NCBI GenBank assembly: GCA_035504095.1
Contig: DATJSN010000092.1
Location: 68,845 to 132,844 of the forward strand
From: Phycisphaerae bacterium
Lineage (GTDB): Bacteria; Planctomycetota; Phycisphaerae; WQYP01
Direction of reading: 5' to 3'
Length of the DNA: 64,000 bases
The notes under the pieces were generated by a model that saw nothing but the letters and a program-made list of their open reading frames with translations, had not been told where the DNA came from and made no database searches. This document shows, piece by piece, positions 20,470-54,664 of this stretch. A program made the translations under genes and the position numbers. Position 1 is the first letter of the stretch. Each line of letters opens with the position of its first letter.

Positions 20470-20511
20470 TCTCGCCCGGGTGGCGGAATGGCAGACGCTC
20501 AGGACTTAAAA
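20470..20511 (+). repeat. attL: 42-bp direct repeat equal to 4 nt of upstream sequence plus the 5' 38 nt of tRNA-Leu (through the anticodon loop)
   Basis: tctcGCCCGGGTGGCGGAATGGCAGACGCTCAGGACTTAAAA is identical to 54554-54595. Confidence 0.8.
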
Positions 20512-20655
20512 GCCCCCGATGAGTGTTCCCAACCAGCGGAAAATCAAGGACTTACGCCCACTAATCCGAACCCTGCACAATTAGTGCATAAAACCGATCC
20601 AGACTTGGAATTTTTAGCCGAGCGCTGGGATAGCCTGCCCGAAAACATCCGCAGA

Positions 20656-20692
20656 GCGATCCTGGCGCTGGCTGATGTTGCGGGACGGTAAC
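20656..20692 (+). repeat. 36/37-bp direct repeat (copy 1) flanking the AbiE module
   Basis: gcgatcctggcgctggctgatgttgcgggacggtaac matches gcgatctggcgctgactgatgttgcgggacggtaac at 22676-22711. Confidence 0.6.
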
Positions 20693-20748
20693 GGGAACGC
20701 TGACCGGGTGCCCATCGAATCGGTTCGCGCCAGTGGCTTAATATATGC

Positions 20749-21828
20749 TCACTTCGATGCGCTATTAATCGCGGATTCCATCTCGTTGAGGACGGACAGA
20801 ATGTGATCGAAAGAAGGAGGCGGCCCAAAGATCATCTCCTGCATGCTCTGGTAGTCTTTGCGAAGCTCGTCTAATCGTGATTTAGGCGGAACAAGCCGGA
20901 GTGTACCGGGACGGGCATTCGTATAGTTGGCAGATGCTGATGCAAAAAAGACGCTCTTATGTTCTGCCACCTTGAGCAGCAGTTCCGTGTTCTTCATCGC
21001 CTCACGACCAATGCCGTGTTCGTACATACGGACCAGATCATAATAATGGCGAGATTGCCGCTCCCGCAAAATCTTTTTCTCCGAGGTATGGTACCAAGCG
21101 TGAAGGATTGTCGCCTTTTCCCAAAATGTGCGTTCAGCCGCCAGAACATGCACGGAACATGTGGGTGATACAAAAACCTGCGGGAAATCCTCTGCGGCAT
21201 AAGGCGTCACCACACCATCAATGGCTGGCCAATGATCGGAGCGTGCCCCAATCTCCAAGCGGACGATGGGATGAATGTATGCGGGGCTGGTAACTGATGT
21301 TGCCGTGCCGCTGCCAGGATAGTGGAACACCAGCGTCTGCTGATGAGGATCGCCCTGGACAAGGTCCAAAGTCCATGTTTGCCCAGAAGCCTTGCCCAGC
21401 GCGGTAACGAACGAACTGCGAAGCTGAGGAAGAAACGTGTCGTGGATGAACTTTCGGCAAACGTTTGTAAGCGAGTCCAGCCGTTTCTCGCGTTGTTTCC
21501 CAGTCTTCGCGGCAGCGGGGTCGGAATCACCGCCAAACCCCAAATCGCCTCGGTTAATAGAAAGATCGATGTCTTCCGAGAACCGCTCGATCACCTTGAA
21601 CACTTTGGCCAGAGATGTGCCTCCTTTGAAGATCAACCCTGCCGGCGGCGGGCTTAGTGAGAACAATCGCTTCAGTGTCCAACAAACCCAGAAATCCTTC
21701 TCGATGATGGACGTGCTCAATCCGCGACGGGTTGCTACAGCATGGAAAAGATCGGCTCGGTCGCTAGCAGATCGTTGTGCGAATTCATCCACGCACAGTC
21801 TCCGCTGGCTTCCTAGCGTGGCTGACAA
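20749..21828 (-). CDS. abiEii: AbiEii/AbiGii nucleotidyltransferase toxin (type IV TA / abortive infection)
   Basis: FKGGTSLAKVF motif (DUF1814-like); 44-nt overlap with the upstream AbiEi. Confidence 0.7.
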   Translation of the reverse strand: MSATLGSQRRLCVDEFAQRSASDRADLFHAVATRRGLSTSIIEKDFWVCWTLKRLFSLSPPPAGLIFKGGTSLAKVFKVIERFSEDIDLSINRGDLGFGGDSDPAAAKTGKQREKRLDSLTNVCRKFIHDTFLPQLRSSFVTALGKASGQTWTLDLVQGDPHQQTLVFHYPGSGTATSVTSPAYIHPIVRLEIGARSDHWPAIDGVVTPYAAEDFPQVFVSPTCSVHVLAAERTFWEKATILHAWYHTSEKKILRERQSRHYYDLVRMYEHGIGREAMKNTELLLKVAEHKSVFFASASANYTNARPGTLRLVPPKSRLDELRKDYQSMQEMIFGPPPSFDHILSVLNEMESAINSASK

Positions 21829-22459
21829 TCTGACGGACGACGCCAGCTATCCAATCGGTGGTGTAACGGGAGTCTTTGGCTAGATCACGTTTTTCCTTCG
21901 CCGGAATCACCGCCTTAAGCCGAGTCACGACTTGCGGGTCAACTGCTTGTTTGCCCATGTACCGTAAGGCTTGAAAGACCAAGGCGCTGGTCTGGCTGCC
22001 AAGAGGTAGTTCTTTTGGAGCGACGTGTTTAATTTGCAGTTCCATCTTTCCAATACGAATACGCCGGGATCGCCCATCGCTTAGATACACGAACTTGGCG
22101 GGTACCTGTGTGGATAGCCCGAAGATATTGGCGGCGACCGCTCCGGAGGGGACCATTCGGCTGCCGGTTCGGCGTCCGATGGCCTGAGCGACTTGGTCAA
22201 CATCGGGAGTGAGCTTGATTTTCAGGCGAGGGTTGATACGGGGGTAGTAATAAAGGCCTCGTCCTAGACGCTGGATGTTGCCAGAACGAACCAGACGAGA
22301 AAGAGCTTGATCCGTGGCATGGCGTGAACCAGTGTCGAGGAAGTCTTTGGGTGTAAAGACCCCCCCGCTTTTGGCCGACCGGATACGCTCAAGAATGGTT
22401 TGTTGTACAGTATCCATAGGCGAAACCTCGTCAGAAAAGTGTATACGTTTTTCTGACAA
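21785..22459 (-). CDS. abiEi: AbiEi antitoxin/transcriptional regulator
   Basis: N-terminal winged-helix region with RLGRGLYYYP motif. Confidence 0.65.
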   Translation of the reverse strand: MSEKRIHFSDEVSPMDTVQQTILERIRSAKSGGVFTPKDFLDTGSRHATDQALSRLVRSGNIQRLGRGLYYYPRINPRLKIKLTPDVDQVAQAIGRRTGSRMVPSGAVAANIFGLSTQVPAKFVYLSDGRSRRIRIGKMELQIKHVAPKELPLGSQTSALVFQALRYMGKQAVDPQVVTRLKAVIPAKEKRDLAKDSRYTTDWIAGVVRQIVSHARKPAETVRG

Positions 22460-22675: not shown

Positions 22676-22711
22676 GCGATCTGGCGCTGACTGATGTTGC
22701 GGGACGGTAAC
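22676..22711 (+). repeat. 36-bp direct repeat (copy 2) flanking the AbiE module
   Basis: See copy 1. Confidence 0.6.
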
Positions 22712-22843: not shown

Positions 22844-23314
22844 ATGGCCTTCTCGGTTTTCATCAGTTATTCCACAAACGATCTGGCCAACGCAAAGGCC
22901 TTAAGCTCTTGGGTCAAGGCAGCAGGCGCACAGCCGTTTCTTGCCGAGTATTCGTTGTCGCCCGGCCAACCGTTGGCGTCAGGCATATTGGCAGCGATTC
23001 GAAACTGTAATTTATTTCTGCTCTTGTGGACTGGCAACGCGCGTAACTCGGAATGGGTGCCTCAAGAGATCGGGATTGCAAAAGGCGCAGGCAAAGACAT
23101 TCTTCCAATTGTTCTGCAACGGGGGCTTACGCTGCCCGGTTTCATCAAGGACCTTAAGTACCTCGCCGTTTACAACGATCAGACAGCTACGATTCAATGG
23201 TTGTATCAACATCTGACGGGCAAGGTCAAGCAAAAGGAGGAAATCGAAAAAGTGGTTGCGGGCGGCATTGTCGGCGCGATTCTCCTTCTGTTGGCCGTGG
23301 CTAGCAAGTCCTAA
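22844..23314 (+). CDS. TIR-domain protein with C-terminal transmembrane helix
   Basis: FISYSTNDLANAKAL TIR N-terminus and C-terminal VVAGGIVGAILLLLAVA hydrophobic helix; 156 aa. Confidence 0.65.
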   Translation: MAFSVFISYSTNDLANAKALSSWVKAAGAQPFLAEYSLSPGQPLASGILAAIRNCNLFLLLWTGNARNSEWVPQEIGIAKGAGKDILPIVLQRGLTLPGFIKDLKYLAVYNDQTATIQWLYQHLTGKVKQKEEIEKVVAGGIVGAILLLLAVASKS

Positions 23315-23515
23315 CTAAGACATGATTTTCATGCCTAGCACTTTTAGAAGATGCTGAAGCTTGTTACTTCCCATCGACTTCCGGCGATGCAGATAATCGT
23401 AAATGTGCCGCTGGCTGATCTTTCCGTCTACTGCCTGGCCAAGTGAGTAAGAGTTTAACCCCAGCTTTTCCACCTTAGCGATCACTGCTTCCTGGATTTC
23501 GTCTTTTTGACTCAT
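23315..23515 (-). CDS. small XRE/Cro-like DNA-binding protein
   Basis: 66 aa; last gene of the ArdC-AlpA operon. Confidence 0.35.
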   Translation of the reverse strand: MSQKDEIQEAVIAKVEKLGLNSYSLGQAVDGKISQRHIYDYLHRRKSMGSNKLQHLLKVLGMKIMS

Positions 23516-23530
23516 GGGTACGATTATACT

Positions 23531-23824
23531 TCATTCTTTTTTTATCCGCTCCCACTTATCGCGCGACGGTGCTCCAGCAGCCAACCAGTCGCGTAGCTCG
23601 TCGATGAGCCAGAGATGACGCCGCGCGATCCAAAAACCTAGCGGCGTCTGGCCAGCCGAAAACTGTGCCAGCCAAGTAGAGCGTGAAATGCCGCATAGTT
23701 TTGCGGCATCAGCAGCCCCAACGGCCAGCGGGGTGATAGGGCTGGCTTGTGGTGTGGCGGTTACGGTGCTAACGGTTTCATCGGGACCGCAGCGTTGGGT
23801 CCGTTTTTCGAGATTACTTGCCAT
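23531..23824 (-). CDS. AlpA/excisionase-family helix-turn-helix protein
   Basis: AKLCGISRSTW...WIARRHLW. Confidence 0.5.
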   Translation of the reverse strand: MASNLEKRTQRCGPDETVSTVTATPQASPITPLAVGAADAAKLCGISRSTWLAQFSAGQTPLGFWIARRHLWLIDELRDWLAAGAPSRDKWERIKKE

Positions 23825-23898
23825 GCTATTTCACCACGCTGCGCCAGAGTCGGGCACGACACATGTCCGGCTCAGGCCCCTATTGTTCAAGTTATTCC

Positions 23899-24876
23899 TT
23901 ACGCTGCAATCGCTTCCGGCTGCTGTTCCGTTGCGACAGCCGCGCCATGCTGGCCAGTGATCCAGTCAGCGGCCTTCTGTGCCGCACCTGCCGCGACTAC
24001 GGCAAGCCGATTGTTGCCGCGTAGAACCTTGATCCATGAGCCGATATAGGCGGCCTGGTTCTCAATGGTCGCTGGCTGAATGCCAGCCCGAGCGCACAGA
24101 TACGCGGCTGACATTTCGGCGATCAACTCTTCACGTACATATTCCGGCGTCTCATGCCCCGTCGGTTTCATCCCGTCTTTGCGATCAAGACGTGTGAAAT
24201 GTCCCGTAGAATGCGCCAACTCGTGAAATAGCGTTGCGTAGTAAGCTTCCGGTGAGACAAACCGTGTAGGCTCCGGGATCAAAACCTTATCTAGCGATGG
24301 CCGATACAACGGGGCGAGGCCGCCATGCTCAATTGTCGGTGCGTTGTCGTACCCTTTGACGATTGCTTCCGCATTTTCAATTGGCGAAAACAAAGTCGGC
24401 TTATATTCGCTGGCATCCGGCGCCGCGATACCTTCGCACTGGTCAACATTGAACACGTTGTAGTAACGCAGCATCGGCACTGTGTCAGGCTCTCCGGTCT
24501 GGCGGTCTACAATCGCCAATTGCTTCCAGAAGATAACCATTGACGATTTTTCACCCTTTTTTACCGAGCCGCCGCGTTCTTTTGCCTGATTGAACGTCAA
24601 CCAGTAAGACGAGACATAACCCTTGCAATACGCCGCAATGTTCAGCGTGAACACGTTCAGGCCGCGATACCCTTTGCCAGTGTTTAGGTTTTTCGGCCAG
24701 CCTGTCTCGCCGCGCCCTAGCACTGGATGACGCCAGGGAACCACGCCTTTTTCAAGCATGGCGACTATCTGATCCGTTACTGTTTGGCACAAATCGAATC
24801 TACTCATTGATGCATCCTCACTATCCCGACGACCGGTCGGCGCGGGCAATCGAACAAATTGGATCGCTAAAGACAC
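23899..24876 (-). CDS. ardC: ArdC-family antirestriction protein (ssDNA-binding N-domain plus HExxH zincin domain)
   Basis: N-terminus DQIVAMLEKGVVPWRHPV and C-terminal FHELAHSTGH. Confidence 0.75.
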   Translation of the reverse strand: MSLAIQFVRLPAPTGRRDSEDASMSRFDLCQTVTDQIVAMLEKGVVPWRHPVLGRGETGWPKNLNTGKGYRGLNVFTLNIAAYCKGYVSSYWLTFNQAKERGGSVKKGEKSSMVIFWKQLAIVDRQTGEPDTVPMLRYYNVFNVDQCEGIAAPDASEYKPTLFSPIENAEAIVKGYDNAPTIEHGGLAPLYRPSLDKVLIPEPTRFVSPEAYYATLFHELAHSTGHFTRLDRKDGMKPTGHETPEYVREELIAEMSAAYLCARAGIQPATIENQAAYIGSWIKVLRGNNRLAVVAAGAAQKAADWITGQHGAAVATEQQPEAIAA

Positions 24877-25214: not shown

Positions 25215-26579
25215 ATGATACTTGCAATCGTTGAGAACAACAGCCCAGCAATAGCGCTTTTAATTGTGGTAGGCATAGCCGTTCTCGGAAATACTTTATT
25301 GCGTGGATCCAGACTACTATTTAGGAAGTTGAGCGGTTGGAAGGCATTGACACAAAGATTCCCCGTGAAAATTATCCATATGTCCGGCGAGAAATACAGA
25401 GCACATGGAGAGTGTGTCAACTTTAGATTTCGCCACAGCGGCCTATATAAACCGTACCTAATTGAGCTTGCACAAGAAGGCCTTTTAGTCACGGCCAGTT
25501 TCGCTTCAGGCTCGCCAATATTTATTCCCTGGTCTAGTGTCGGCGGTGTTAGCGTGATCGATCTAGATCATTTGGGGACGGCAGTTGGGGTGACTGTGGA
25601 CTATGAAAAAATAATGCGTTTCGAGCTTCCCAATGCCGCACTGACCACCATTCAAAAAAATATTCTTGCAGAACGATTCCAAAAAGTAACGAGTTCTCCA
25701 TTATCTACTGTCTCACTATTCGAGACGAGAAATGCACCAACAATAGAAAAAGACGAACCCACAAAAAGCGTAACGAGAAACCAACCAACGACGGCAGGGC
25801 AAACCTTAATCACCAAACCGAAAATTGCTCCAACTTCAACCAGCCCTGGCAATTTACCAGTTACGATTTCTGAATGGCAATCTGCTACTGATCAACTAGC
25901 CGGAATTAATGAAAGCACTTGGATTCCTTCAAAAGGGTATGCCAATAATTCCCAGAATGTTAATAATGTATACAAATTCTATCAAACCATATACGAGGCG
26001 AATCCTAATCTTTTGTGGGCCGGTCTGGCTGCTGTGGCTGGTAGTAATGATGTACTGTGGACATTGAAGATACTGAATTCACTCGCCGTCTATGATCCAA
26101 CTGATGATCTTCCCATTACTGAAGACACGCTTCTAACTATGCAACAGAACATTTACAAAGACCTTGCTTGGCAACAAGTGGCATATCAGTTTGGTAGGAT
26201 CGATGCAGTCACAAACATTTATCTAAGTGGTGGAATAACGCCAGAAAATTATCAAACATGGCTGAAAATAGATAATGGCATCCAGACAGGTATTAGCAAG
26301 CAAATCGTAACTGGCAATTATGAACTGCTCTATAGGGAACAATTCATGATTGTCACCCCAGGATATGTAAAACTCAGGAACCTTCCCTTCCCAGTCCCAT
26401 CTGTCGTGGAGGATTTATTTGTATCAAATCCAATTCCAGGAGGTGCGCAATTTGATGGCGATATAACTGATTTCCAACAACGAATGTCTTGGATGGGTGA
26501 TCAGGTATTTTATCCATTTAGTCAGATGTCTCCAGGCGACCGTTTAAATCTTGTCGCAAAACCAATTATGAATCAGTAG
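25215..26579 (+). CDS. hypothetical membrane-anchored protein (N-terminal TM, Thr/Pro-rich linker, C-terminal globular domain)
   Basis: 454 aa in a very AT-rich segment; no family recognised. Confidence 0.4.
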   Translation: MILAIVENNSPAIALLIVVGIAVLGNTLLRGSRLLFRKLSGWKALTQRFPVKIIHMSGEKYRAHGECVNFRFRHSGLYKPYLIELAQEGLLVTASFASGSPIFIPWSSVGGVSVIDLDHLGTAVGVTVDYEKIMRFELPNAALTTIQKNILAERFQKVTSSPLSTVSLFETRNAPTIEKDEPTKSVTRNQPTTAGQTLITKPKIAPTSTSPGNLPVTISEWQSATDQLAGINESTWIPSKGYANNSQNVNNVYKFYQTIYEANPNLLWAGLAAVAGSNDVLWTLKILNSLAVYDPTDDLPITEDTLLTMQQNIYKDLAWQQVAYQFGRIDAVTNIYLSGGITPENYQTWLKIDNGIQTGISKQIVTGNYELLYREQFMIVTPGYVKLRNLPFPVPSVVEDLFVSNPIPGGAQFDGDITDFQQRMSWMGDQVFYPFSQMSPGDRLNLVAKPIMNQ

Positions 26580-26648
26580 AGGACAGAAGACAGGATATTC
26601 AGCGAAATTTACCGTACAGAAAAATATGTAGCGTGTGCGGAAAATTGA

Positions 26649-28286
26649 TCAGATAATTTTTAACCATGATACCTCAACATCATCAAATTCTTCTGATAAA
26701 CTAAGAAAAGCCGGTAGACAAGCTCCACATTTCTCTCCTAGATTTTTATTAAATGCTTCATTGTATGAATCGGCATACAACGTGGAACAAATCAAGGCAC
26801 GTGATGTATGGTATTTTACCTTTTCGCTGTAGAAACCAACGCCACCCAGAACAGTATTAAACCACATTTTAACTGTTTCAGCAAAATTATAAGGAATATT
26901 AAGGCGAGATAATGCCCGAATACAAAGACGCCAACCTTGTCTTTCCTCTTTAATATATTTTGGTCTTCTAAAACGCAAAACACTAGTACCATTGCAATAT
27001 TTGTCCAAATTTGTAATCCTGACATTACCCCCACGAACTAAGCTATCAAATGTGGCTTCTACTACATTGTAACCATCTCCAATATACATGGCGGCATGTG
27101 TCCATTGAGCATCCTGGTCCTTGTAGCCGCCTTTGTTTTGGACTTGACTAATCCACTTTGATACAAAATCATTCACCTTGACATCCCGAACTAAAAGCAA
27201 ATCACCAGCGCACAATTTCTTTGTATCGATTAGCTTTCCAAATTTTCTTGTTGTGTCCGGTAATGCGCGCAAATCGCTAATGGTGCCTTTGCTATCGTTA
27301 TTAGGAAGAAGCTCATGCTGGGTTGGTAGCACAAGTGCTGTCGAATCTGGTAAAGCGATTTTCACAAGTTCATTACAGGGAATACATTTTTTTAAGCATT
27401 GTGCAATTATTTCCTCTAGTTCCTTTAGTTCCTTGCTCTCGTCTGATAATACATTCGCTTTGTTGTTAAAGTGTTTAATAAACTCTTCTTGCATAGCATT
27501 GACCAACGAACGCCGCGTCGTGTTCAATGTTATTTTCGGCATATTAATCCCACTGATTTTATTACCAATATAATTTTTAGGAATAGTTCCGCCAATCTCT
27601 TTTGAGGTTTCACTGTGCAAGTTATTGAAATCAATTGCATATTTAGGGTGCTTATCTACAATCAAAACATCTTTAATAAACGGCGCTTCCTTTTGGAGTA
27701 ATGGCTTTATGTTTTCTACCATATCTTTACTCATGTGAAGCTGAGATTTGATTGGCGAATCATTACAAAATAAAACCACGTCATTATTTATGTGTGATTT
27801 TAAAGTCGGTAGATCAATAATAAGTTCTGATATCGCGCCACTGTAATTAAGGAATTTCGTATCCGATCCATATTTCTGTTTGGCATCATCCAATGCTGGT
27901 GCTTTATCTTGTTGTGGACGTAGGTATACTTTTCGAATATTTCTTCTTTGTCCGGTAGTTCTTTTGATTTTAACGCCGGTAACTTTACCAGACTTTGAGT
28001 CTATAGAATATGATACAGGCGTATTGGCGCGGAGATGCAATTTAGTGAAGGACTGACCTCGGTAGTTTTCAATTGCTTCCGGCGTGAAAACTAAAGTCTT
28101 ACCTTCTGGAGTTGAAATATAAACTAATGATCTACCGGATATCCGTTCAACAACACCATTCAATCTAATTCCATCAGTTTGTCCAGCCGCCCCAACTATA
28201 TTCTTTTTAGTACTCGGCATATTGCACCCCTTAAAACTCCAAGCGAATTTACCGTTACCATAGTTTTCTACGTAGTCTATCGCCAC
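26649..28286 (-). CDS. hypothetical protein with C-terminal permuted papain-like (His-then-Cys; YiiX/C92-like) putative hydrolase region
   Basis: 545 aa. WTHAAMYIGDGYNVVEA followed by ALICSTLYADSY; AT-rich. Confidence 0.35.
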   Translation of the reverse strand: MAIDYVENYGNGKFAWSFKGCNMPSTKKNIVGAAGQTDGIRLNGVVERISGRSLVYISTPEGKTLVFTPEAIENYRGQSFTKLHLRANTPVSYSIDSKSGKVTGVKIKRTTGQRRNIRKVYLRPQQDKAPALDDAKQKYGSDTKFLNYSGAISELIIDLPTLKSHINNDVVLFCNDSPIKSQLHMSKDMVENIKPLLQKEAPFIKDVLIVDKHPKYAIDFNNLHSETSKEIGGTIPKNYIGNKISGINMPKITLNTTRRSLVNAMQEEFIKHFNNKANVLSDESKELKELEEIIAQCLKKCIPCNELVKIALPDSTALVLPTQHELLPNNDSKGTISDLRALPDTTRKFGKLIDTKKLCAGDLLLVRDVKVNDFVSKWISQVQNKGGYKDQDAQWTHAAMYIGDGYNVVEATFDSLVRGGNVRITNLDKYCNGTSVLRFRRPKYIKEERQGWRLCIRALSRLNIPYNFAETVKMWFNTVLGGVGFYSEKVKYHTSRALICSTLYADSYNEAFNKNLGEKCGACLPAFLSLSEEFDDVEVSWLKII

Positions 28287-30171: not shown

Positions 30172-30203
30172 AGCGCTGGCAAAAGCAAATAGACTGGTAT
30201 TTC

Positions 30204-30776
30204 ATGGCAATTTTCTATCGTGGCGCTGGCATTGGAACTTGGTGGCACAAACACGGTCCTGGCCCAAAAGGCTGGAAAGCGCATTCACCCTATATGGAAG
30301 CTAGCGAAACACGCTTAATGAACCACATTGCAGAAGGCAGCACTGCCAGCCCTTTCATATCTTTAACGCGCTCGTATGGCGTTGCGTTAAACTATGCTCG
30401 TAATTCTGGCTTGAGTCGCCCCAATCGTAGGCGCCGTGCATTCGTTTGGGAAATCGAGCTTGAAGAACCTCTTCCGGATGGCTTGCGTTTACATGACCCT
30501 GTAAAAAGGATTGCCAACCATGTTCCACATCCCCTCGCAACTATTCCGTACCAGCACAATGGTGCACCGACCTGCCTCATCGGTTTGATTGATATAACAC
30601 AAGAGAAACTTCTCGCGCAGATATGTCCTGTGCCACCTAATTCAAATCCACCTTATGGCCCCCCTAATATTTCCCTGGGGCTCAAAACTTTAATCTTCGC
30701 ATTGAGAGACGCGGAAGTTCTCGCTACAGGAGTAATACCCAAAGAATGTGTACGCCGTCGATACGATGTTTTTTAA
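30204..30776 (+). CDS. hypothetical protein with R-S-E ADP-ribosyltransferase-like motif arrangement
   Basis: FYRG (residue 5-8), FISLTRS (~50), EIELEE (~83), spaced as in C3/iota-type ARTs. Confidence 0.3.
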   Translation: MAIFYRGAGIGTWWHKHGPGPKGWKAHSPYMEASETRLMNHIAEGSTASPFISLTRSYGVALNYARNSGLSRPNRRRRAFVWEIELEEPLPDGLRLHDPVKRIANHVPHPLATIPYQHNGAPTCLIGLIDITQEKLLAQICPVPPNSNPPYGPPNISLGLKTLIFALRDAEVLATGVIPKECVRRRYDVF

Positions 30777-30789
30777 TGGACTGATTAAA

Positions 30790-43273: not shown

Positions 43274-43276
43274 GGA

Positions 43277-43783: not shown

Positions 43784-43789
43784 GCAAAT

Positions 43790-45277: not shown

Positions 45278-45292
45278 GCTGGTTTCTCCAAC

Positions 45293-47362
45293 TCAAACAA
45301 CATGTCCAAAGTAGTCATTTGTGACGCGAACCTCATAATTATGACCATCGGTTCGTCCATGCGGATGCAGCGTATATACACGCGCGAGTCGATTACGAAT
45401 TTTATCAAACAAAGGGCCATCTGGATCAATTTCAGCATTGGTGCTAAGGATAATGGATTGGTGGCCGCTAAGGTATAGTTGGTCAAGCACGTTGGCACGC
45501 ACTTCTTTATCGAGCCGCGCTAAAGGCGTATCCACAACCAATGGCGGAACGAGCTTGGCGAGACGCCGAAGGGCTTCATAAAAAGCCAACATTCGCACCT
45601 GCCGCTGCCCGGCAGACGTATTGGTTTCTTCCCATGTCACCTTTTTGCCGCCACGCCGTACAAGCCAGCATTGCCAATTACTATCAAATTCCATACCCTC
45701 GAACTCGCGTTCCCGTTCTGCGATTTCCACCCATAACTTGCCAACTTCTTCTGAAATCTGCCGGCGCATTTGAATAGCAGCACGACTACGAATCTCGCCA
45801 GCGGCTTCGCGATAGCGTGTTGATAAAGCAGCCAGGCTTTCACCACGTTCAGCACGTTCGGCAATTTCCCTTTGCGTGGTTTCCTGACGTTTAAGATCAA
45901 CTAATTCAACCCCCATCCGAGTGATTTCAGCATCAATGTCCTTTAGCCGGTTGCTAATTTGATCGCGGCAAGTATTGAGACCGCCCCGTTTTTCATGGAG
46001 TTCTACGCCACGCTTATATGCTGCTGTATTTTGTTGCATCTGTTTCAGCTTTTGATCAATCTGCCGCAACTCCACGGTCATTTTTTCGATGTTGACGCAC
46101 ATTTCAGCTAAATCACGAAGATCACTTTGGTTTGTGGCCAGCCGTGCGCGCACTTGAGCACTCGTGTCGTTACGATCCGCTAGATAAATCCGATCCGGGA
46201 TACCTTGGGGAGGCGGATGAAACAGCCGATGGAGCGCGTCCTCAAGCCGCTTCATGTAAAAAGACTCAATATCTGGCTGAATCGCAAATTCCTTTGGCAC
46301 ATTGCCGAACACATCCTGTTTTACCTGCGGAATTTTCGGCTCGACGCTGGATTTAGCGCTTTCCCATTCACGACGGCGCTCTTCTGCAAGCAGAGTATCG
46401 TGCAATTCTTTCCGATAAATTCCCAGCAAAGAAACCGGCAAGGTCAATTCCCAAGCTTCTGTGAGTTTATCTTCAAGTTTTGTCTTGGCTTCTGTGAGTT
46501 CTGTCCGACGTTCTTGAGCTTTTTGTAACTCGTCAGGATCAACTGCACCGAGGGTCTTCAAATCGTCTTCGACTTCCAATAATTCCGCCTCGATTTCATG
46601 CAAATCGCGCTTAAGCGCATCAAGCTCTTTTCGTCTTGCCTTCAGGACACCTTCGACGGTTATGACTTTGCCATTCAATTCGGCCAGTAACGTTTCGGGG
46701 TCTGTGCCGCCAGAAGCATTGTAAACACGAGGAATTTTTGAACTGATCAATTGGCGGAGATCACTTTCCAACTCGGAGTATGTCCAAAGACCGAGAATTC
46801 GACTCACGCCTTCAACAATGTCTTGTTGTCCCAGATTGATGCTCTGACTGCGTTCAGCATCAAAGAAAAAGAAACGGGCGAGATGCCGTGGCAGAAAAGC
46901 GTCACGTAGTTTATGAATTACCTGTTCATCTTCGATTCGACCTGCTGTGTCGGAACGTGTGGCATAATGTTCCCAGATAGGTGATGAGTTAAGACGAAAC
47001 CGAACTTCACGAAGCAGATCAATTTTTCGACTACCAATTTTATCATCACGAAGATGAACAACGGCTTTCAAACGCATCGTGTCCTGACCCTCAGCCAAAG
47101 CGCGTCGATTCAAAGATTTTTCAAAAGCAAATCGGGTTGCATCGGAGCCAGTCTCCACTTTTTTCAAATCTCCAACCCCGCTTTCACCAACGACCGCCAG
47201 ATACAAAGCGCGAAGCAAGTGCGTCTTTCCGGCACCATTCTTTCCTCCTATAAGAATGCCACATTTGCCTTCTAAACTGCGGAAGTCAATTTTGTGCTCG
47301 CCATAGAATGGCCCAAAGTTCTCCAGCGTTAATGAGTCAATATAGACTTCGGACATAATCAA
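45293..47362 (-). CDS. dndD: DNA sulfur modification protein DndD (SMC/ABC-like ATPase)
   Basis: N-terminal P-loop GGKNGAGKTHLL, long coiled coil, C-terminal signature/D-loop region; 689 aa. Confidence 0.7.
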   Translation of the reverse strand: MIMSEVYIDSLTLENFGPFYGEHKIDFRSLEGKCGILIGGKNGAGKTHLLRALYLAVVGESGVGDLKKVETGSDATRFAFEKSLNRRALAEGQDTMRLKAVVHLRDDKIGSRKIDLLREVRFRLNSSPIWEHYATRSDTAGRIEDEQVIHKLRDAFLPRHLARFFFFDAERSQSINLGQQDIVEGVSRILGLWTYSELESDLRQLISSKIPRVYNASGGTDPETLLAELNGKVITVEGVLKARRKELDALKRDLHEIEAELLEVEDDLKTLGAVDPDELQKAQERRTELTEAKTKLEDKLTEAWELTLPVSLLGIYRKELHDTLLAEERRREWESAKSSVEPKIPQVKQDVFGNVPKEFAIQPDIESFYMKRLEDALHRLFHPPPQGIPDRIYLADRNDTSAQVRARLATNQSDLRDLAEMCVNIEKMTVELRQIDQKLKQMQQNTAAYKRGVELHEKRGGLNTCRDQISNRLKDIDAEITRMGVELVDLKRQETTQREIAERAERGESLAALSTRYREAAGEIRSRAAIQMRRQISEEVGKLWVEIAEREREFEGMEFDSNWQCWLVRRGGKKVTWEETNTSAGQRQVRMLAFYEALRRLAKLVPPLVVDTPLARLDKEVRANVLDQLYLSGHQSIILSTNAEIDPDGPLFDKIRNRLARVYTLHPHGRTDGHNYEVRVTNDYFGHVV

Positions 47363-48654
47363 CCCTTTTTCTCTGCTGATTGCTCTGCCAAGTCATCTTT
47401 CAAAATATTGAGCAAATCGTCCGGCAAGCCGTATGCACGATGGCTTTCACTGTATTCCTCTACTTTGGCAAGCATACGACGGAGAATATCGGGGTTGATT
47501 TTCTTTTCACTGGCAACTTGTTCCTCCAGTTGGCGTAGACGGTTCAGTTCTCGCAAATCGGTATTCATGATGACACCTCGTTGTTTGTTGATGATTCGGG
47601 CAACACCCCGACCATCGTCGGGGTCACGTGCTGCTTTCCACATTTGCTGAATCAAAAGTAGCTCTTCTGGCGTGATGAGCGGCAACCCAGTTTCTTCCTG
47701 TAGCTGGAGAAGGCGCTTCAAGAGTTCGCGGCGACCTTCAATTCGTAATGGTCCAGGTCCATCATTGCCGTTCATGCGGCGGCTGTCACGCCAACCATTT
47801 GCAGGATCACGGAATTGTATAAGTGTTTCACGGAAGGCTATCAGATGTTCCATTCGTTCATCACCAGCGGCAAGCAATCCTTCGCTTGCCTTGTCACGAT
47901 CTACAACGGTGCATGTCCAACATCCAAAACGCGAATTGCCGCAAGAGGGAGTGCTGGTATCAATCTGGATAGGGCACTCGCCGTTGGAAGCATTGGCGTA
48001 TAGTCTATACAAGGAGCGATTATCACTACCCCAAGGATTGTTTTTTTGAAGCAGATATGCCCAGACTTCCTCAGTAGAGAGGAATTCGATTGGATTGTTA
48101 ACCCACACGAGCGGCAAGTCAGGATGACGACGCAAGCCATTACGAGTTATCTGGCCAGCCATTGTCTGTGCCCGTGTGGCGCTTTCAGCACGTCTTGCAC
48201 CCAAATGTAAAATGGCTTCGCCCCAGTGACCAATACGCTGGTTTACGAATGTCGTGACTGGATCAATTTTCATACGCTGAGTACACCAGCGGAATGTACG
48301 ATTTGGTGGTGGATAGCCGCGACCAATAATATTGACCCAAAAGGATTGTTCCGGAGGCGGCTTTAGCAACTGAGTTTCAATGTTAAGATTATTTTGCCGA
48401 GAGCAGCGCCGCATTCGCTCAAGATTCCCTTCAATCCCCTCTGAAACTGCCGGTATCTCGACACGAGTATCAGTGCAAAGGATCGCAATGGGCTTTTTCC
48501 GCTGGTCAACCGGTAGGGACAGGACAGTGTCAAAAACGAGTGACGCGACCATCGTGCTGTCTTTACCCCCGCTGAATCCAACAAGCCAAGGACGTTCATC
48601 TTCGACGTAGAGTCGCAGCATTGCATCTCGTATATCCTGGAACGCCGTGCTCAT
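47359..48654 (-). CDS. dndC: DNA phosphorothioation sulfurtransferase DndC (PAPS reductase/PP-loop family)
   Basis: FSGGKDS PP-loop and C-terminal Cys cluster CGNSRFGCWTC. Confidence 0.8.
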   Translation of the reverse strand: MSTAFQDIRDAMLRLYVEDERPWLVGFSGGKDSTMVASLVFDTVLSLPVDQRKKPIAILCTDTRVEIPAVSEGIEGNLERMRRCSRQNNLNIETQLLKPPPEQSFWVNIIGRGYPPPNRTFRWCTQRMKIDPVTTFVNQRIGHWGEAILHLGARRAESATRAQTMAGQITRNGLRRHPDLPLVWVNNPIEFLSTEEVWAYLLQKNNPWGSDNRSLYRLYANASNGECPIQIDTSTPSCGNSRFGCWTCTVVDRDKASEGLLAAGDERMEHLIAFRETLIQFRDPANGWRDSRRMNGNDGPGPLRIEGRRELLKRLLQLQEETGLPLITPEELLLIQQMWKAARDPDDGRGVARIINKQRGVIMNTDLRELNRLRQLEEQVASEKKINPDILRRMLAKVEEYSESHRAYGLPDDLLNILKDDLAEQSAEKKG

Positions 48655-49692: not shown

Positions 49693-49881
49693 ATGTTACG
49701 TCAGGATCGAAACGAAACGCTTCTAACCAAAGTTGAAGTCTGTCAGCGGCTTAAATTTTCCTCGCGCAAGCTAAATCGGCTTGTTGCAGCCCGTCAGATT
49801 CCAGCCCTACGGGCCGGGCGGCATCTTCGGTTCCGCGCAAGCGACATTGATCGCTACATCGACACCCTTCCGGCGGCGTGA
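49693..49881 (+). CDS. AlpA-family transcriptional regulator/excisionase
   Basis: KVEVCQRLKFSSRKLNRLVAARQIPALRAGRHLRF. Confidence 0.55.
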   Translation: MLRQDRNETLLTKVEVCQRLKFSSRKLNRLVAARQIPALRAGRHLRFRASDIDRYIDTLPAA

Positions 49882-49936: not shown

Positions 49937-51931
49937 GTGAATAATCATACACAAACTAATCCGGTATTGCAGGCGGCGCTCGATTATTCGCGCCTGGGAT
50001 TACCGGTGTTTCCATGCCGCCCAGACAAGACACCATATACGCCGAACGGCTTTAAGAACGCGACGACCGACGAGAAAACGATTCGGGGTTGGTGGAATCT
50101 TTACCCCGATCTTCTGATTGGTATGCCAACAGGTAAGTCATCTGGTGTGAGCGTGCTGGACATTGACGGCGCCGAAGGTGAAGCAGGCTTAGCAACTTTA
50201 TTGGCAAACAATAATATGCCGGACGCCCCATGTGTTCGCACTGGACGAGGCGGAAGGCACTATTGGTTTTCTCACCGGGATGGAATCAAAAACTCGCAAT
50301 CGACAATCGCTCCGGGCATCGATGTTCGCGGTGAGGGTGGCTATGTGATCCTTCCGCCGAGTTCAAGCAAGCATGGCGCGTACTCGTGGATTAGGAAGTT
50401 TTCCGACAAGCTTGCCGAACTTCCAAACTTCCCCGATTGGCTCAAACCTGCGCCCAGTCAGCCAGCTTTGCCGGTGGGGCATAACGCGACGATTATTTCG
50501 CCTGATGACCAGATAAAACGATGCCGTGCCTACCTGGGCAAGATGTCGGGCGCTATTAGCGGGCAGCGTGGACATGATCGCACGCTTGAGGCAGCGGCAA
50601 CGTGTTTCCGGTTCGGGCTTTCAAAAGATCAGGCTTGGCCACTGATTCTAGAATTTAACTCGCGATGTTCGCCGCCTTGGACTGAGAAAGAACTCGGGCA
50701 CAAGCTCGAAGACGCCGAGCGGAAGGTTCGCGAGTCCGGGGAATTCGGAAAGTTTCTCAATGAGCCGACCTGGCAGCCTTCGCCGTCCGCGTTAGCAGAA
50801 AAAACAACCGGGGTTTTGCCGGAATTGTGCGAGGCCGCTGACATTGCTGACGATGAAAATTCTGAGCTTGGACCACCGGTCATCGACGGCTATCTAAGGC
50901 AGTCCGAGACCATGAATCTCATTGCCGCGCCAAAACTCGGCAAAAGTTTTTTGAGTTACGGTCTTGCCCTATCGGTAGCTCTGGGGCAGCCATGGCTCGG
51001 TCAGTTTCCCTGCCCCCCTCGCAAAGTTTTAATATTGGACAACGAATTGCACAAGCGCACGTTGCGTCACAGGATTAAGCAGGTATGCCGGGCGATGAAC
51101 ATTGATCCTGAAGCACTTCGCGGAAGATTATTCTTCGATATATTTCGTGGGCGACTGGTGCGATTCAATGAACTAACACCATACTTTACCAGCCTGGCTG
51201 ACCACGGGTTCAGCCTGATTATTTGTGACGCATATTATCGGTTTTTTGCGGGCGACGAAAATTCCAATTCCGAAACCGCCACTGCATATAACCTGCTCGA
51301 TCAGTTCGCCGCATTGACCGGCGCGGCAATCGTCCTCATACACCACCAATCGAAGGGGGATCAGTCCGGTAAGTCCGTCACCGACGTGGGCGCTGGCGCT
51401 GGTTCGCAGAGTCGGGCAGCGGATACCCATGCTGTTATGCGGGAACACGAAGAGCCGGGCAAGGTCGTCCTGGAGGCTAAATGCCGGACTTGGAGAACGC
51501 CTCTGGCGATTACGCTCGAATACGACTATCCGTTGTGGAAGGCTCGCCCAGACATTGTGCCTGTTCTCAAAACCCTAAGAAAAAGAAGGGTGCGCGATGA
51601 AACCGAAAAACCCAGTTACGAGACGGCTGCCGAACTCGCCCTTGATGAACCCAAGCCGCTGGTTTATTTCACGGCAAAAATGCGTCTTGGGGCAACCAAA
51701 ACAAGGCAACTCTTAGCGGAAGCCGTGGAGTGTGGTTTGATCCATGCATGGCCGCCGGCAACAAAAAATGAACCCGCTCGGTGGGCAAATAAATCACCCC
51801 CGTTAACGCAAGAGGGGTGCTCGCACGCACCCTATATACACCCCAAGTGTGCGGGAACGCACCTTGGGGCTGAGGTGCTCGCAGGTGCGAGCACTCGCAA
51901 AAAAACGGAAAACGAAAAGGAGAAACCATGA
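49937..51931 (+). CDS. bifunctional DNA primase-polymerase (Prim-Pol) with RepA-like AAA_25 helicase/ATPase domain
   Basis: N-terminus LGLPVFPCRPDKTPY...; Walker A AAPKLGKSF; Walker B VLILDNE. Confidence 0.7.
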   Translation: MNNHTQTNPVLQAALDYSRLGLPVFPCRPDKTPYTPNGFKNATTDEKTIRGWWNLYPDLLIGMPTGKSSGVSVLDIDGAEGEAGLATLLANNNMPDAPCVRTGRGGRHYWFSHRDGIKNSQSTIAPGIDVRGEGGYVILPPSSSKHGAYSWIRKFSDKLAELPNFPDWLKPAPSQPALPVGHNATIISPDDQIKRCRAYLGKMSGAISGQRGHDRTLEAAATCFRFGLSKDQAWPLILEFNSRCSPPWTEKELGHKLEDAERKVRESGEFGKFLNEPTWQPSPSALAEKTTGVLPELCEAADIADDENSELGPPVIDGYLRQSETMNLIAAPKLGKSFLSYGLALSVALGQPWLGQFPCPPRKVLILDNELHKRTLRHRIKQVCRAMNIDPEALRGRLFFDIFRGRLVRFNELTPYFTSLADHGFSLIICDAYYRFFAGDENSNSETATAYNLLDQFAALTGAAIVLIHHQSKGDQSGKSVTDVGAGAGSQSRAADTHAVMREHEEPGKVVLEAKCRTWRTPLAITLEYDYPLWKARPDIVPVLKTLRKRRVRDETEKPSYETAAELALDEPKPLVYFTAKMRLGATKTRQLLAEAVECGLIHAWPPATKNEPARWANKSPPLTQEGCSHAPYIHPKCAGTHLGAEVLAGASTRKKTENEKEKP

Positions 51932-52197
51932 CAATGAAACCTGAAAATCTGCCGCCTTGTCCGGCTGAGCTTCCGATGCCCCAAGGTGGCTGCCTGCTTT
52001 GCGGTCAACCGGAGACATCCGCATCTGTTTGGATGAGGCTTGCTCACCACGGTAAACAGAGAGCGATCAAATATCGCCTTTGCCATGAACATGCCATACA
52101 TGCGGAGGACTTTGTTGATGCCATCAAAGACGCCATTAGGCGAAAAGTAGTAGCTGAGCGTGCAACTAAGAATAACTTTGATACGGAGAATTTATGA
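51928..52197 (+). CDS. small Cys/His-rich (zinc-ribbon-like) protein
   Basis: CPAELPMPQGGCLLCG...CHEH. Confidence 0.3.
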   Translation: MTMKPENLPPCPAELPMPQGGCLLCGQPETSASVWMRLAHHGKQRAIKYRLCHEHAIHAEDFVDAIKDAIRRKVVAERATKNNFDTENL

Positions 52198-52445
52198 AAA
52201 TCGACAATAAAATTCGGCGTGAAGTATTGATACGGTTTGGCGAGGAAAGACGGGAGACCATCGAGGCAGATTGGCGTCCAGAGTTGGTTGACGACGTGGC
52301 CTGCCTCTTTGTCGCCCAAAGGATGGACCTTCCGCTTAGTTTGGTGCGTGAAATATGTCTGACTGATGCCCCGGAGACTTAACAACGCAAGCGCGAGGGT
52401 ATCGGGCAGGGACTGAAAACGAGATAAATACGGGTTTTTTGTCCG

Positions 52446-52904
52446 TTGAATAGGTTTGATTGGAGATTTTTTATGGCGCGGCCTCTATTGAACATCGACC
52501 CCATTATTGTGGGCAAGCTCGCGGCTATGGGGTGCTCAAATTGCGAGATAGCAGACCTACTCGGTTGCAGTGAGGGCACCATACGGTCAAAGCGTTTTTA
52601 CGAGATTTTGGCCAAAAATAGAGCCGAGATTCGTAAGAACTTACGTAAAGCCCAGATTGACGCGGCACTTGCGGGAAATACAGCCATGATGATCTGGCTT
52701 GGCAAACAAATGCTCGGCCAAACGGATAAATCGGAAACCGAAATCAGGGACCAAAGGGGTGAGCCTCAACAGTTGATTGTTGTGCTTGAAGCAAGAAAAG
52801 ATGGGTCGTTAAGAGAAGTTCAGGATGCGAGCGAGGAACCGGCCCAGTTAAACGCCGGTAGCAGCATTGGCGGCGTTATTGACGTGCAGGCTGAAGTGAA
52901 ATAG
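52446..52904 (+). CDS. HTH (sigma70 region-4/LuxR-like) DNA-binding protein; true start possibly ATG 52473
   Basis: LAAMGCSNCEIADLLGCSEGTIRSK. Confidence 0.35.
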   Translation: MNRFDWRFFMARPLLNIDPIIVGKLAAMGCSNCEIADLLGCSEGTIRSKRFYEILAKNRAEIRKNLRKAQIDAALAGNTAMMIWLGKQMLGQTDKSETEIRDQRGEPQQLIVVLEARKDGSLREVQDASEEPAQLNAGSSIGGVIDVQAEVK

Positions 52905-52907
52905 GTC

Positions 52908-53135
52908 TTGACATTAGGCAAGAGGCTTGATAATATATGCATCGTGAACATCGGCGAACAATTAAAATTCTACATTCGCAAGAGCAGGATCACGCAGGCC
53001 GAGCTTGCCCGGCAGACCGGGATTCAAGAATCAGCAATAAGCCGTTTTCTGACTGGTGAGCGGGGATTAGACCTGGTGAGCATCGAAAAACTGGCGAAGT
53101 ATTTCCGCCTGGAACTTAGGAAAAAGGTAAGGTGA
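52908..53135 (+). CDS. XRE-family HTH regulator
   Basis: ITQAELARQTGIQESAISRF. Confidence 0.5.
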   Translation: MTLGKRLDNICIVNIGEQLKFYIRKSRITQAELARQTGIQESAISRFLTGERGLDLVSIEKLAKYFRLELRKKVR

Positions 53136-54664
53136 AAAACATGGCATCAGTTTTCAAACGTGGAAAGAATTGGATTGCATCATTTAAGGATAAGGACGAG
53201 CGTTGGCATCAGAAAGCTTGCGGTAGGGATAAAAGCGTAGCCCAGAAGATCGCTAATAAGCTGGAAACCGAAGGGATGCTTCGCATAAACGGCTTGGTAG
53301 ACCCGAACGTGGATCGCATCGCTGCCGCTGAGAAGAAATCTCTGGCTGTACACTTGGCCGAGTTTCGTGCCGACATTGCAAGCCGAAACGGCAATAACGC
53401 TTATGCCATGCAAGTCCATCAGCGGGCCGAGCGCATCATCAGTTTTGGCGGTATTGAACAATTGTCGCAATTGAAGGCCGCCGCAGTGAACACCGCTATT
53501 GCCAGACTACGCGAGGCCAAATATGCCAAAGCTAAAGATAGCAAGGATAAAGAGGGCAAAGCCAAATATGGCAAAACCAGTGTGTCTCATCATCTGCGGG
53601 CCATCAAAATGTTTTCGCGCTGGTTGTATTGCAATGGACACACCGCTGGCGATACGCTGCTGACCATCAAAGTTCCGACCGTAGCCGCATCGGATAAGAA
53701 AATGCATCGTCGGGCGTTAAGCCTGGCTGAATTTTACGCGCTGGTAACGTTTACTGTCGGGTCTGGAAGCGCCTATGGGATGACCGGCGAAGATCGGGCA
53801 ATGCTCTACACCATGGCTGGATCGACCGGTTTTCGGCAGGGTGAACTACGCGCCCTGACTCCGGAAAGCTTTACTCTTGATGCTGACGCTCCGGCAATCA
53901 CCGTAAAGGCTGCATACTCCAAACGCCGCCGGGATGATCGGCAACCCGTCCCGCCTGCCTTGGCCGACACGATAAAGCCATGGCTGGACCGCAAGGTTGC
54001 CGGAAAACCCGTATTCGCCATGCCATCGCGTTACGAGGTGGCTGATATGCTCAGGAGTGATCTTGATGCCGCCCGGAACCAATGGCTTAAAGAAGCGGAA
54101 AAGAATCAGGAGGAATTAAAGCATCGGCAAGAGGATAGTTTTCTCTCTTCCGATGAGGTTGATTTCCACGCCCTGCGCGTGAGCTATATCTCGTGGCTGG
54201 TTCAAAGCGGTGTGAACGTTAAAACGTGCCAGGAGCTTGCCCGGCATTCAACACCCGTCCTGACCATCGGAACATACGCTCGGATGAGCCTAAATGACCA
54301 AGATAACGCTTTGGCGGCTTTGCCTGTACCCGGAGCCCATCCATACACCCAGCAGCAAATTATTCTGGAGACCGGAACCGGCAACATATCGAGCAACGTC
54401 CATGCACAAAATATGCACAAAGCCGGCGTCCAAATACCGCAAATTGAGGCTCATAGAGGCAAGCGTAAATCTACCATCCAGGCGAGTGCAGGATATCAGG
54501 AAACCACTGTAAATACAGGGGAAAGCCCTGTATTATCCGAGACATTATTGACCTCTCGCCCGGGTGGCGGAATGGCAGACGCTCAGGACTTAAAATCCTG
54601 TGTTGCGCAAGCGACGTGCGGGTTCGAGTCCCGCTCCGGGCAATCGATTGAGAGAGACGCTTGA
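53132..54664 (+). CDS. int: tyrosine-type site-specific integrase
   Basis: R...HALRVSYISW...TIGTYARM catalytic motifs. The ORF runs through the tRNA-Leu gene, so the true C-terminus is uncertain. Confidence 0.8.
   Translation: MKNMASVFKRGKNWIASFKDKDERWHQKACGRDKSVAQKIANKLETEGMLRINGLVDPNVDRIAAAEKKSLAVHLAEFRADIASRNGNNAYAMQVHQRAERIISFGGIEQLSQLKAAAVNTAIARLREAKYAKAKDSKDKEGKAKYGKTSVSHHLRAIKMFSRWLYCNGHTAGDTLLTIKVPTVAASDKKMHRRALSLAEFYALVTFTVGSGSAYGMTGEDRAMLYTMAGSTGFRQGELRALTPESFTLDADAPAITVKAAYSKRRRDDRQPVPPALADTIKPWLDRKVAGKPVFAMPSRYEVADMLRSDLDAARNQWLKEAEKNQEELKHRQEDSFLSSDEVDFHALRVSYISWLVQSGVNVKTCQELARHSTPVLTIGTYARMSLNDQDNALAALPVPGAHPYTQQQIILETGTGNISSNVHAQNMHKAGVQIPQIEAHRGKRKSTIQASAGYQETTVNTGESPVLSETLLTSRPGGGMADAQDLKSCVAQATCGFESRSGQSIERDA
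54554..54595 (+). repeat. attR: 42-bp direct repeat (start of the intact tRNA-Leu)
   Basis: Identical to 20470-20511. Confidence 0.8.
54558..54642 (+). tRNA. tRNA-Leu (anticodon TAA), class II with long variable arm
   Basis: Acceptor GCCCGGG/TCCGGGC with discriminator A, D-arm GGCGGAATGGCAGACGC, anticodon loop CTTAAAA, T-arm GCGGG-TTCGAGT-CCCGC. Confidence 0.85.

Follow-up and report, generated by a model that had tools for sequence, protein, structure and literature searches.

Introduction

The integrase genes of Myxococcus phage Mx8 and of the archaeal SSV-type elements extend across their own attachment site, attP (PMC4383910; PMC6070905). In Mx8, attP lies within int and integration makes a new 3' end of the gene that alters the properties of Int (PMC6070905; PMC4383910). 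In the SSV-type 'suicidal' integrases the recombination site is located in the int open reading frame (ORF) and integration partitions the gene (PMC7253208; PMC8371274), yielding two non-functional parts; this arrangement has been described as restricted to archaea (PMC8371274; PMC7253208). Some elements integrate into the 5'-distal part of tRNA genes, a 'considerably less frequent' event (PMC6563490), and reverse-orientation elements that recombine with this part were described by Zhao & Williams (2002, J Bacteriol 184:859; here as summarised in PMC6563490). In this study, we analysed a 64,000-nucleotide stretch of a Phycisphaerae bacterium genome (contig DATJSN010000092.1, positions 68,845 to 132,844; the whole stretch is referred to as the window), and we estimate at roughly 80% the probability that it carries a 34.1-kb Planctomycetota integrative element with a lambda-type tyrosine integrase, inserted in reversed orientation at the anticodon loop of a tRNA-Leu(UAA) gene, with attP inside int and the tail of int detached at the far end of the element.

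The locus resembles this phage in that attP is located in int past the catalytic domain, a tRNA gene serves as the target and the C-terminus is swapped while the catalytic domain stays whole; the length of Mx8 Int, 533 amino acids (aa), is also similar to that of the window Int. Mx8 Int, however, is without the DPDL..AWPxLP..AIL tail of the window family, and the Planctomycetota family differs from it in being phylum-wide and in using many tRNAs in both orientations, while the window element is not a phage. Membership of the Mx8 integrase family was rejected, as no tblastn match to Mx8 was obtained in 50,697 phage records, and hhalign gave a probability of 25.6% at 18% identity, so that no homology is detectable beyond the generic tyrosine-recombinase fold. 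SSV-type integrases belong to Pfam PF16795 (Phage_integr_3) and to archaeal hosts, whereas the window family belongs to PF00589 and to bacterial hosts and only its C-terminal tail is detached; a suicidal integrase of SSV type was rejected on the catalytic domain that is intact when integrated, the PF00589 assignment and the Planctomycetota hosts. Like the reverse-orientation elements, as these are summarised, the window element displaces the 5' fragment and supplies a new 5' half, but in the window family the reversal recurs (~10% of members, at least five branches of the integrase tree) and is coupled to an attP internal to int. We found no paper describing the Planctomycetota integrase family; the coverage of the literature was incomplete, so this is weak evidence.

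Target site and boundaries

Two stretches of 42 bp, at 20470-20511 and 54554-54595, are identical throughout by direct sequence comparison, and a repeat search scored the same pair as 55 nt at 91% identity (20460-20514 and 54544-54598) and as the only long repeat joining distant parts of the window. A 42-mer match by chance in 64 kb is of the order of 1e-16, and the repeat is therefore not due to chance. It comprises 4 nt of upstream leader followed by positions 1-38 of tRNA-Leu and ends exactly with the final base of the anticodon loop (7 nt, CTTAAAA), past which the copies diverge (TCCTG... vs GCCCC...). ARAGORN and Rfam agree on one tRNA-Leu(UAA) gene (56.2 bits against a gathering score of 29) that includes the right copy, and neither makes a tRNA call at the left copy, which is a displaced tRNA fragment and not a gene. 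The boundaries and the target are as follows.

20470-20511, + strand: attL copy of the 42-bp repeat, displaced 5' tRNA-Leu fragment, leader -4 to position 38 (sequence, repeat search)
54554-54595, + strand: right-hand (attR) copy of the 42-bp repeat, 5' half of the functional tRNA as supplied by the element (sequence, repeat search)
54558-54642, + strand: intact tRNA-Leu(UAA) (ARAGORN, Rfam)

Since the intact tRNA stands at the right end, the element lies upstream of it and the functional tRNA draws its 5' half from the element. The chromosome's original tRNA-Leu 5' half is the displaced left copy, and the orientation is reversed with respect to the usual 3'-half layout. Measured against the Islander criteria for genomic islands in tRNA genes (PMC4383910), an intact tDNA has a same-strand cognate 5' fragment 34 kb upstream, on the correct side, and a PF00589 integrase lies inside or overlaps an interval whose length, 34,084 bp (34.1 kb), falls within 2-200 kb. 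The G+C content is 38-50% between 25 and 50 kb as compared to 50-56% in the flanks and in the core module of the element, a scan that had been proposed in an earlier, sequence-only reading of the window. That reading had also described perfect 42-bp direct repeats corresponding to the 5' part of tRNA-Leu up to the anticodon loop and an integrase beside the intact tRNA, all of which agree with the present data, the integrase gene at 53141-54664 adjoining the tRNA; its central proposal is supported: a 34-kb element is inserted in tRNA-Leu, the repeat is the 5' half of the gene and the cargo is rich in defence genes. What the reading overlooked is that int spans the attachment site.

Architecture of the integrase gene

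The two pieces of int that are present in the integrated state are separated by the length of the element.

53141-54664, + strand: integrase, integrated state, 507 aa, PF00589 (Pfam, ORF reading)
20512-20691, + strand: detached 3' end of int, 59 codons and stop, ending ...DPDLEFLAERWDSLPENIRRAILALADVAGR*, in frame with the repeat (stop-to-stop ORF 20461-20691)

The body of Int is lambda-Int-like with three domains, followed by a linker of ~100 aa, and the catalytic residues R232, K261, H343, R346, H369 and Y379 are all present and invariant in the family. The ORF remains free of stops for ~125 codons beyond the catalytic Tyr, on through the repeat and the tRNA, with residues 472-485 (SRPGGGMADAQDLK) encoded by the repeat and the final 22 aa by the 3' half of the tRNA. 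The same reading frame through the repeat at the left end of the element leads onward into the 59-aa tail (DPDL..W.sLP..IR.AIL). When the rejoined Int of 544 aa was used as a query, 11 of the 120 best homologues aligned over the full length, and these carry the motif DPDL..(I/V)..AWPsLP.A(I/L)(R/K)AGI(L/V)AMV at their extreme C-terminus, with W524, L527 and P528 invariant. A hidden Markov model (HMM) of the tail, from which the window sequence was excluded, matched a single ORF out of 1547 in the window, 20461-20688, with an E value of 4.9e-8 (next best 0.7). Integration would exchange 59 aa for 22 aa at the C-terminus of Int, and the catalytic residues are kept.

AlphaFold2 (AF2) models of the rejoined window Int and of a full-length homologue, P0049, display the three-domain body with a predicted local distance difference test score (pLDDT) above 90, the ~100-aa linker at 31-47 and a pair of C-terminal helices at 85-94; in the rejoined window Int the tail helices span residues 515-526 and 529-543 with pLDDT of 93-94. 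The best PDB match of P0049 is full-length lambda Int, 1z1b. Thus attP lies inside int, in a linker that is predicted to be disordered, and as the tRNA-encoded residues fall in this linker, it becomes clear how the coding region can accommodate an arbitrary tRNA sequence in either orientation.

A second direct repeat, of ~37 bp with one mismatch and one indel, brackets the AbiEi and AbiEii genes, with copy 1 at 20656-20692 (+ strand) and copy 2 at 22676-22711. Copy 1 coincides with the end of the tail ORF (11 codons and the stop), and the repeat looks like a scar of cassette insertion or of recombination between related elements.

Comparison with related elements

A scan of one genome per species (GTDB) returned at least 557 relatives of the integrase, and of the best 80 nearly all belong to Planctomycetota. 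In 68 of 84 int copies at GTDB loci, the catalytic domain is followed by a tRNA gene that starts 137-384 bp further on (median 246), and in 63 of the 68 the int ORF enters the tRNA, on the opposite strand in 57 (the usual 3'-half layout) and on the same strand in 6 (5'-half layout); the family median of the extension beyond the catalytic domain is 109 aa. Both ends could be recognised for 16 integrated relatives, located at various tRNAs, four of the 5'-half type, with lengths of 5.3-11.4 kb as compared to 34.1 kb for the window element. All 16 have a separate tail ORF upstream on the int strand that is in frame with int via the tRNA-derived repeat, a count that includes three copies of one element (L008-L010). 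All of the repeats include the anticodon stem-loop at their tail-proximal end, which places the crossover at the anticodon loop.

The layout with a displaced 5' fragment and an element-supplied 5' half is found in the window, L005, L052 and L071. L005, on a 759-kb contig, is an independent 7.5-kb element at a tRNA-Leu(UAA) whose Int is 46% identical; it has a perfect 50-bp 5'-half repeat through which int reads, and its left-end ORF, in the same frame, ends ...DPDLEAVAMAWPTLPAALKAGILAMVKAAGGEGTP*. About 10% of the family members carry the tRNA 5' half, and in a neighbour-joining integrase tree these cases occupy at least five places: the window element with L104 and L005 (Leu-UAA), L052 (Leu-CAA), L054 (Ser), L071 (Met) and L078 (Met). 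Their scatter over the tree indicates that the reversal arose repeatedly.

In three further relatives (L006, L007 and L083) and in the viral contigs L109, L110 and L142, int and tail form one ORF and there is no complete tRNA gene. In L006 and L007, the stretch that separates catalytic domain and tail contains, according to Rfam, a partial tRNA consisting of the anticodon arm, the T arm and the 3' acceptor, with no 5' half. Insertion at the anticodon loop, which the sequence-only reading had put forward for confirmation, is supported by the 16 integrated elements with the same layout and by the unintegrated relatives with a matching attP. The in-frame split of int and its fused form in free relatives are thus read directly from the sequence and its comparison.

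Searching with the tail profile alone retrieved 2437 database proteins, the top 120 of which are 'hypothetical protein' ORFs of 39-88 aa, and many of these begin with tRNA-derived peptides such as GTRTPDLRIMRP or MRPGGGTADAEDLKS. Judged on their sequences, they look like orphan tails of integrated elements, and thousands of Planctomycetota 'hypothetical proteins' of 40-90 aa are probably integrase tails of this kind. One database protein, P0121 (86 aa, from an ENA contig of 514 bp), contains two integrase-tail motifs in tandem, as would be expected if family elements pile up in arrays at one site.

A relic of a related element was found in L104 (10001-11385; JGI 3300004092, a Phycisphaerae metagenome-assembled genome), where a 75%-identical int lies directly upstream of a tRNA-Leu(UAA). 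The relic is truncated at the N-terminus and its linker is interrupted by an in-frame TGA. Over its 5' half the tRNA is identical to that of the window, and other element genes and a left repeat were not found within 10 kb; from its sequence, L104 appears to be a decayed element whose tRNA half stayed fixed. The closest integrase, P0002 (75% identical), was considered as a second intact island and rejected as a decayed relic.

Proposed mechanism and alternatives

In the mechanism that we propose, the element would bring the tRNA 5' half and presumably its promoter, and the chromosomal 5' half would be moved to the left end. The integrated form would encode the 507-aa Int, with the tail-coding piece parked 34 kb off at attL in the frame of the repeat, and the excised circle would encode the 544-aa Int with the tail. 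By analogy with the Int/IntX pair of Mx8, the tail may modulate the assembly or the directionality of Int, in which case the form of the enzyme would report the integration state. The AlpA protein could act as the excisionase and the PrimPol-helicase could replicate the circle, whilst transfer might be aided by a phage, given the TerS-like protein, or by conjugation, given ArdC. The attP junction would be expected to read ...GACATTATTGACC + 42-bp repeat + GCCCCCGATGAGTG... and the attB junction ...CATAATTGTTTATT + 42-bp repeat + TCCTGTGTTGCG....

A number of observations weigh against this reading or against parts of it. The sequence-only reading had called for an empty tRNA-Leu site or an excised circle; both were looked for and neither was found. 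Exact degenerate patterns of attL, attR, attB and attP had no match in JGI metagenome contigs or IMG/VR, both flanking proteins, looked up by exact match, occurred only in the same occupied context or on short contigs whose ends fall inside the repeat, and 15 loci with ~50%-identical homologues of the flanking tetratricopeptide repeat (TPR) protein had no tRNA nearby, so that synteny is lost at that distance. Integration is therefore deduced from the anatomy of the locus and from its relatives and was not seen directly. The protein database that was searched holds the 507-aa form of the window Int and not the 544-aa form, the rebuilt attP has no arm-type repeats above chance, and no sigma-70-like site upstream of the restored tRNA passed the promoter scan. 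The AF2 output came without a contact map. The frame agreement in 16 of 16 elements includes the three copies of one element and may in part be constrained by stop-free frames of tRNA fragments. Finally, members of the family are normally 5-11 kb long, and a length of 34 kb may therefore reflect secondary accretion.

This last point leads to the alternative that survives best, although we consider it unlikely: a small element of ~5-10 kb, consisting of the core and the tail, to which defence genes were added independently at a hotspot, for instance by tandem integration and deletion, so that the 34 kb would not be one mobile unit. The sizes of the both-ended relatives (5.3-11.4 kb), the mixed G+C content of the cargo (38-50%), the ~37-bp repeat around AbiE, which duplicates the end of the tail ORF and would be the scar of a secondary event, and the database protein with two tandem tails are all consistent with such a history. 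The window nevertheless contains one integrase, one tail and one tRNA-derived repeat pair, with no internal tRNA fragments marking former junctions, and both ends are intact and in frame, so that Int could still excise the whole interval.

Somewhat less probable again is an ordinary tRNA island in which the read-through of int is an accident of missing stops and the left-end ORF, unconnected with the integrase, is either non-coding or a small gene of its own. Gene callers do list thousands of tails as small 'hypothetical protein' genes in their own right, a possible TTG start is available to the left-end ORF (ATG in its L005 counterpart), and the linker is poorly conserved and predicted to be disordered. 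An accident is difficult to reconcile, however, with a frame across the repeat that is identical in 16 of 16 elements, with the fusion of int and tail in unintegrated relatives and viral contigs, with a tail that is always at the extreme C-terminus of long homologues and with an int ORF that in the family extends beyond the catalytic domain by a median of 109 aa, and these data largely refute it. That the repeat is a partial tRNA duplication or an assembly artefact unrelated to site-specific integration is very improbable, and the comparison with the family already refutes it. In its favour, the search for an empty site was negative and the short-read contigs of one sample break inside both repeat copies; against it, the same junctions were assembled independently in other samples (L001, L003), the repeat ends exactly at the anticodon loop and is abutted by the integrase, and the design is identical in 16 related elements.

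The reading of a reversed integration with an attP internal to int can be extended to a wider proposal, which we hold only tentatively and regard as somewhat less likely than its converse: a large undescribed Planctomycetota family of lambda-type integrases, with thousands of database instances, in which attP is embedded in the disordered linker and the conserved C-terminal helical hairpin is detached by integration and joined on again by excision, so that Int would be toggled between two forms by its own reaction, as a built-in switch of directionality or state. As the linker would tolerate any sequence derived from a tRNA, either tRNA half could be carried, which would explain the ~10% reversal. 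The window element would then be the most cargo-laden member of the family seen here.

Defence islands integrated in tRNA genes are common, and the cargo alone is not news. The window element, on the other hand, departs from the near-universal rule that elements targeting tRNA genes carry the 3' part, and after its insertion the host needs element DNA both for the tRNA 5' half and for expression of the tRNA, a dependence that can freeze an integrase remnant in place, as in L104. An int that spans its own attachment site has been known from a single phage of bacteria (Mx8) and from the SSV-type elements of archaea, and is found here in a phylum-wide bacterial family with a conserved detachable tail, which offers a natural system for asking how an integrase senses its integration state and why the 3'-half rule exists. 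In practical terms, overlaps between integrase and tRNA genes in Planctomycetota genomes are real and not annotation errors, and the tail ORF together with the integrase is a precise marker of island boundaries.

Replication, regulation and tRNA expression

The core module spans 49.7-54.7 kb at the right-hand end of the element and precedes and includes int. Its remaining genes, and the sites that may govern expression of the tRNA before and after integration, are as follows.

49693-49881, + strand: AlpA/excisionase-type HTH_17 protein, 62 aa (PF12728 E 3e-11; PHROG excisionase match)
49937-51931, + strand: PrimPol + AAA_25 helicase replication protein, 664 aa (Pfam; PHROG primase/polymerase match)
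51928-53135, + strand: small ORFs of 89 and 62 aa, a 152-aa helix-turn-helix (HTH) protein and a 75-aa Cro/CI-type HTH protein (Pfam, PHROG)
20432-20461, + strand: promoter-like site TAGAGA-18-CATAAT, 12 nt upstream of the displaced fragment (consensus match only)
54507-54536, + strand: candidate weak hexamers CTGTAA-18-TATTAT around a hairpin (read from the sequence; below the promoter-scan threshold)

The AlpA-type protein is a probable recombination directionality factor. Of the genes that the sequence-only reading had placed beside the integrase, AlpA, PrimPol/AAA_25 and the Cro/CI-type HTH gene are indeed there, and ArdC is sited at the far left end. The element shares with P4- and PICI-like satellites an Int, an AlpA-type excisionase, a primase-helicase, a Cro/CI-type HTH protein, a tRNA site and a defence cargo, and it contains the core set by which phage satellites are recognised (Int, excisionase, primase-helicase and repressor, with no virion genes); it differs from P4 in having a PrimPol-AAA_25 fusion as the replication protein in place of an alpha-type primase. 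Pfam and PHROG scans revealed no genes for capsid remodelling or helper interference, and the sole packaging match is a weak one of the 152-aa HTH protein (52446-52904) to the small terminase, PHROG 309 TerS (E 9e-8), which hints at satellite-like packaging or phage-assisted transfer. We know of no helper phage for the window element. ArdC is more typical of conjugatively transferred DNA.

The TAGAGA-18-CATAAT site is presumed, from its match and position, to be the original chromosomal tRNA-Leu promoter left at attL. Just upstream of this site and of the displaced tRNA fragment, an inverted repeat of 24 nt (20351-20440) is 92% complementary around a 42-nt loop. At the other end, the CTGTAA-18-TATTAT hexamers fall within the linker-coding part of int and precede the restored tRNA by 22-50 nt, together with a 9-bp hairpin, AATACAGGG-GAAAG-CCCTGTATT (54512-54534), 24 nt ahead of the tRNA. 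Hexamers and hairpin are kept in L104 (about 11258-11281) with a compensatory C-G to T-A change, and the hairpin could be a protein-binding site or a signal for expression or processing of the tRNA.

Cargo genes

The cargo occupies ~29 kb between the tail and the core module and consists of the following genes.

20749-22459, - strand: AbiEii toxin (20749-21828) and AbiEi antitoxin (21785-22459) (PF08843, PF13338/DUF6088; PADLOC AbiEii E 8.8e-104, AbiEi E 4e-68)
22844-23314, + strand: TIR-domain protein, ThsB-like, 156 aa (PF13676 E 4.4e-17; PADLOC ThsB E 4e-8)
23315-23824, - strand: two small ORFs, 66 aa without a family match and 97 aa weakly HTH_17/excisionase-like (Pfam, PHROG)
23899-24876, - strand: ArdC-type anti-restriction protein, ArdcN and zincin peptidase domains (Pfam; PHROG 7245 E 1.8e-72)
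25215-28286, both strands: two proteins without a significant family, 454 aa (+) and 545 aa (-), at the lowest G+C, 38-42% (Pfam, PADLOC, NCBIfam)
29260-30776, + strand: 303-aa protein with AbiJ_NTD4 and DUF7014, and a 190-aa protein without an assigned family (Pfam, NCBIfam)
30748-34929, + strand: 1393-aa P-loop NTPase, PD-Lambda-4_A-like (PADLOC PDLC03991 E 4.5e-28, residues 141-1104; AAA_22 weak)
35055-38884, - strand: 450-aa protein without a family, Methyltransf_35 (36573-37520) and GHKL ATPase (37517-38884) (Pfam)
39346-48654, both strands: DNA phosphorothioation cluster (Pfam, PADLOC, NCBIfam), with a 168-aa protein without a family and the six genes below
39346-41004, - strand: dnd-associated methyltransferase TIGR04096 (E 4e-175)
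40911-42041, + strand: DndA (E 1e-144)
42038-43273, - strand: DndB (dnd cluster scan)
43790-45277, - strand: DndE-HerA-like ATPase fusion, 495 aa, DndE being the N-terminal domain
45293-47362, - strand: DndD (E 1e-59)
47359-48654, - strand: DndC (E 6e-125)

The labels AbiE, TIR and dnd given in the sequence-only reading are borne out by Pfam, PADLOC and NCBIfam. AbiEi is adjacent to the AbiEii nucleotidyltransferase, as in an AbiE (type IV toxin-antitoxin) system, whereas for the ThsB-like TIR protein no ThsA partner was found in Pfam and PADLOC scans of the window, and we do not assign it to Thoeris. The labels 'HEPN-like' and 'ART-like' found no support in Pfam, PADLOC, NCBIfam or PDB sequence searches, and no Avs model of PADLOC matched the protein called 'Avs-like', for which PD-Lambda-4_A-like fits better; a sequence search returned no PDB relative for this 1393-aa NTPase. 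The proposed GHKL pair is reduced to one GHKL ATPase, since the 450-aa protein, considered as a second GHKL, was rejected as it has no similarity to the GHKL protein.

All of dndA, B, C, D and E are present, as required for Dnd modification. No full match to DndF, DndG or DndH was obtained, so that a DndFGH restriction module (or PbeABCD or SspE) is not assigned, and the sole match of DndFGH type is a similarity to the C-terminus of DndH within the DndE-ATPase fusion. In this region (43277-45277), DndE is fused to a HerA/AAA_10-type ATPase resembling mad8 and the C-terminus of DndH, followed by a 168-aa protein without a family. Beside dnd (35055-41004) lie the TIGR04096 methyltransferase, the GHKL ATPase, Methyltransf_35 and the 450-aa protein, none of which is recognised by PADLOC; the four genes together may constitute a restriction or sensing arm for phosphorothioation. 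Both the length of 34 kb and the ~37-bp repeat around AbiE point to genes acquired secondarily within the element.

Other repeats in the window

Two further sets of repeats were observed outside the element. At 62102-64000, tandem repeats with units of 495 bp (76-83% identity to the first copy) and ~246 bp run off the right end of the window and are probably part of a large repetitive surface protein gene. A direct repeat of 300 nt with 93% identity (13304-13603 and 15222-15521) has its copies 1.9 kb apart, one of them falling in the Pirin gene (15209-16093); this points to a recent partial duplication.

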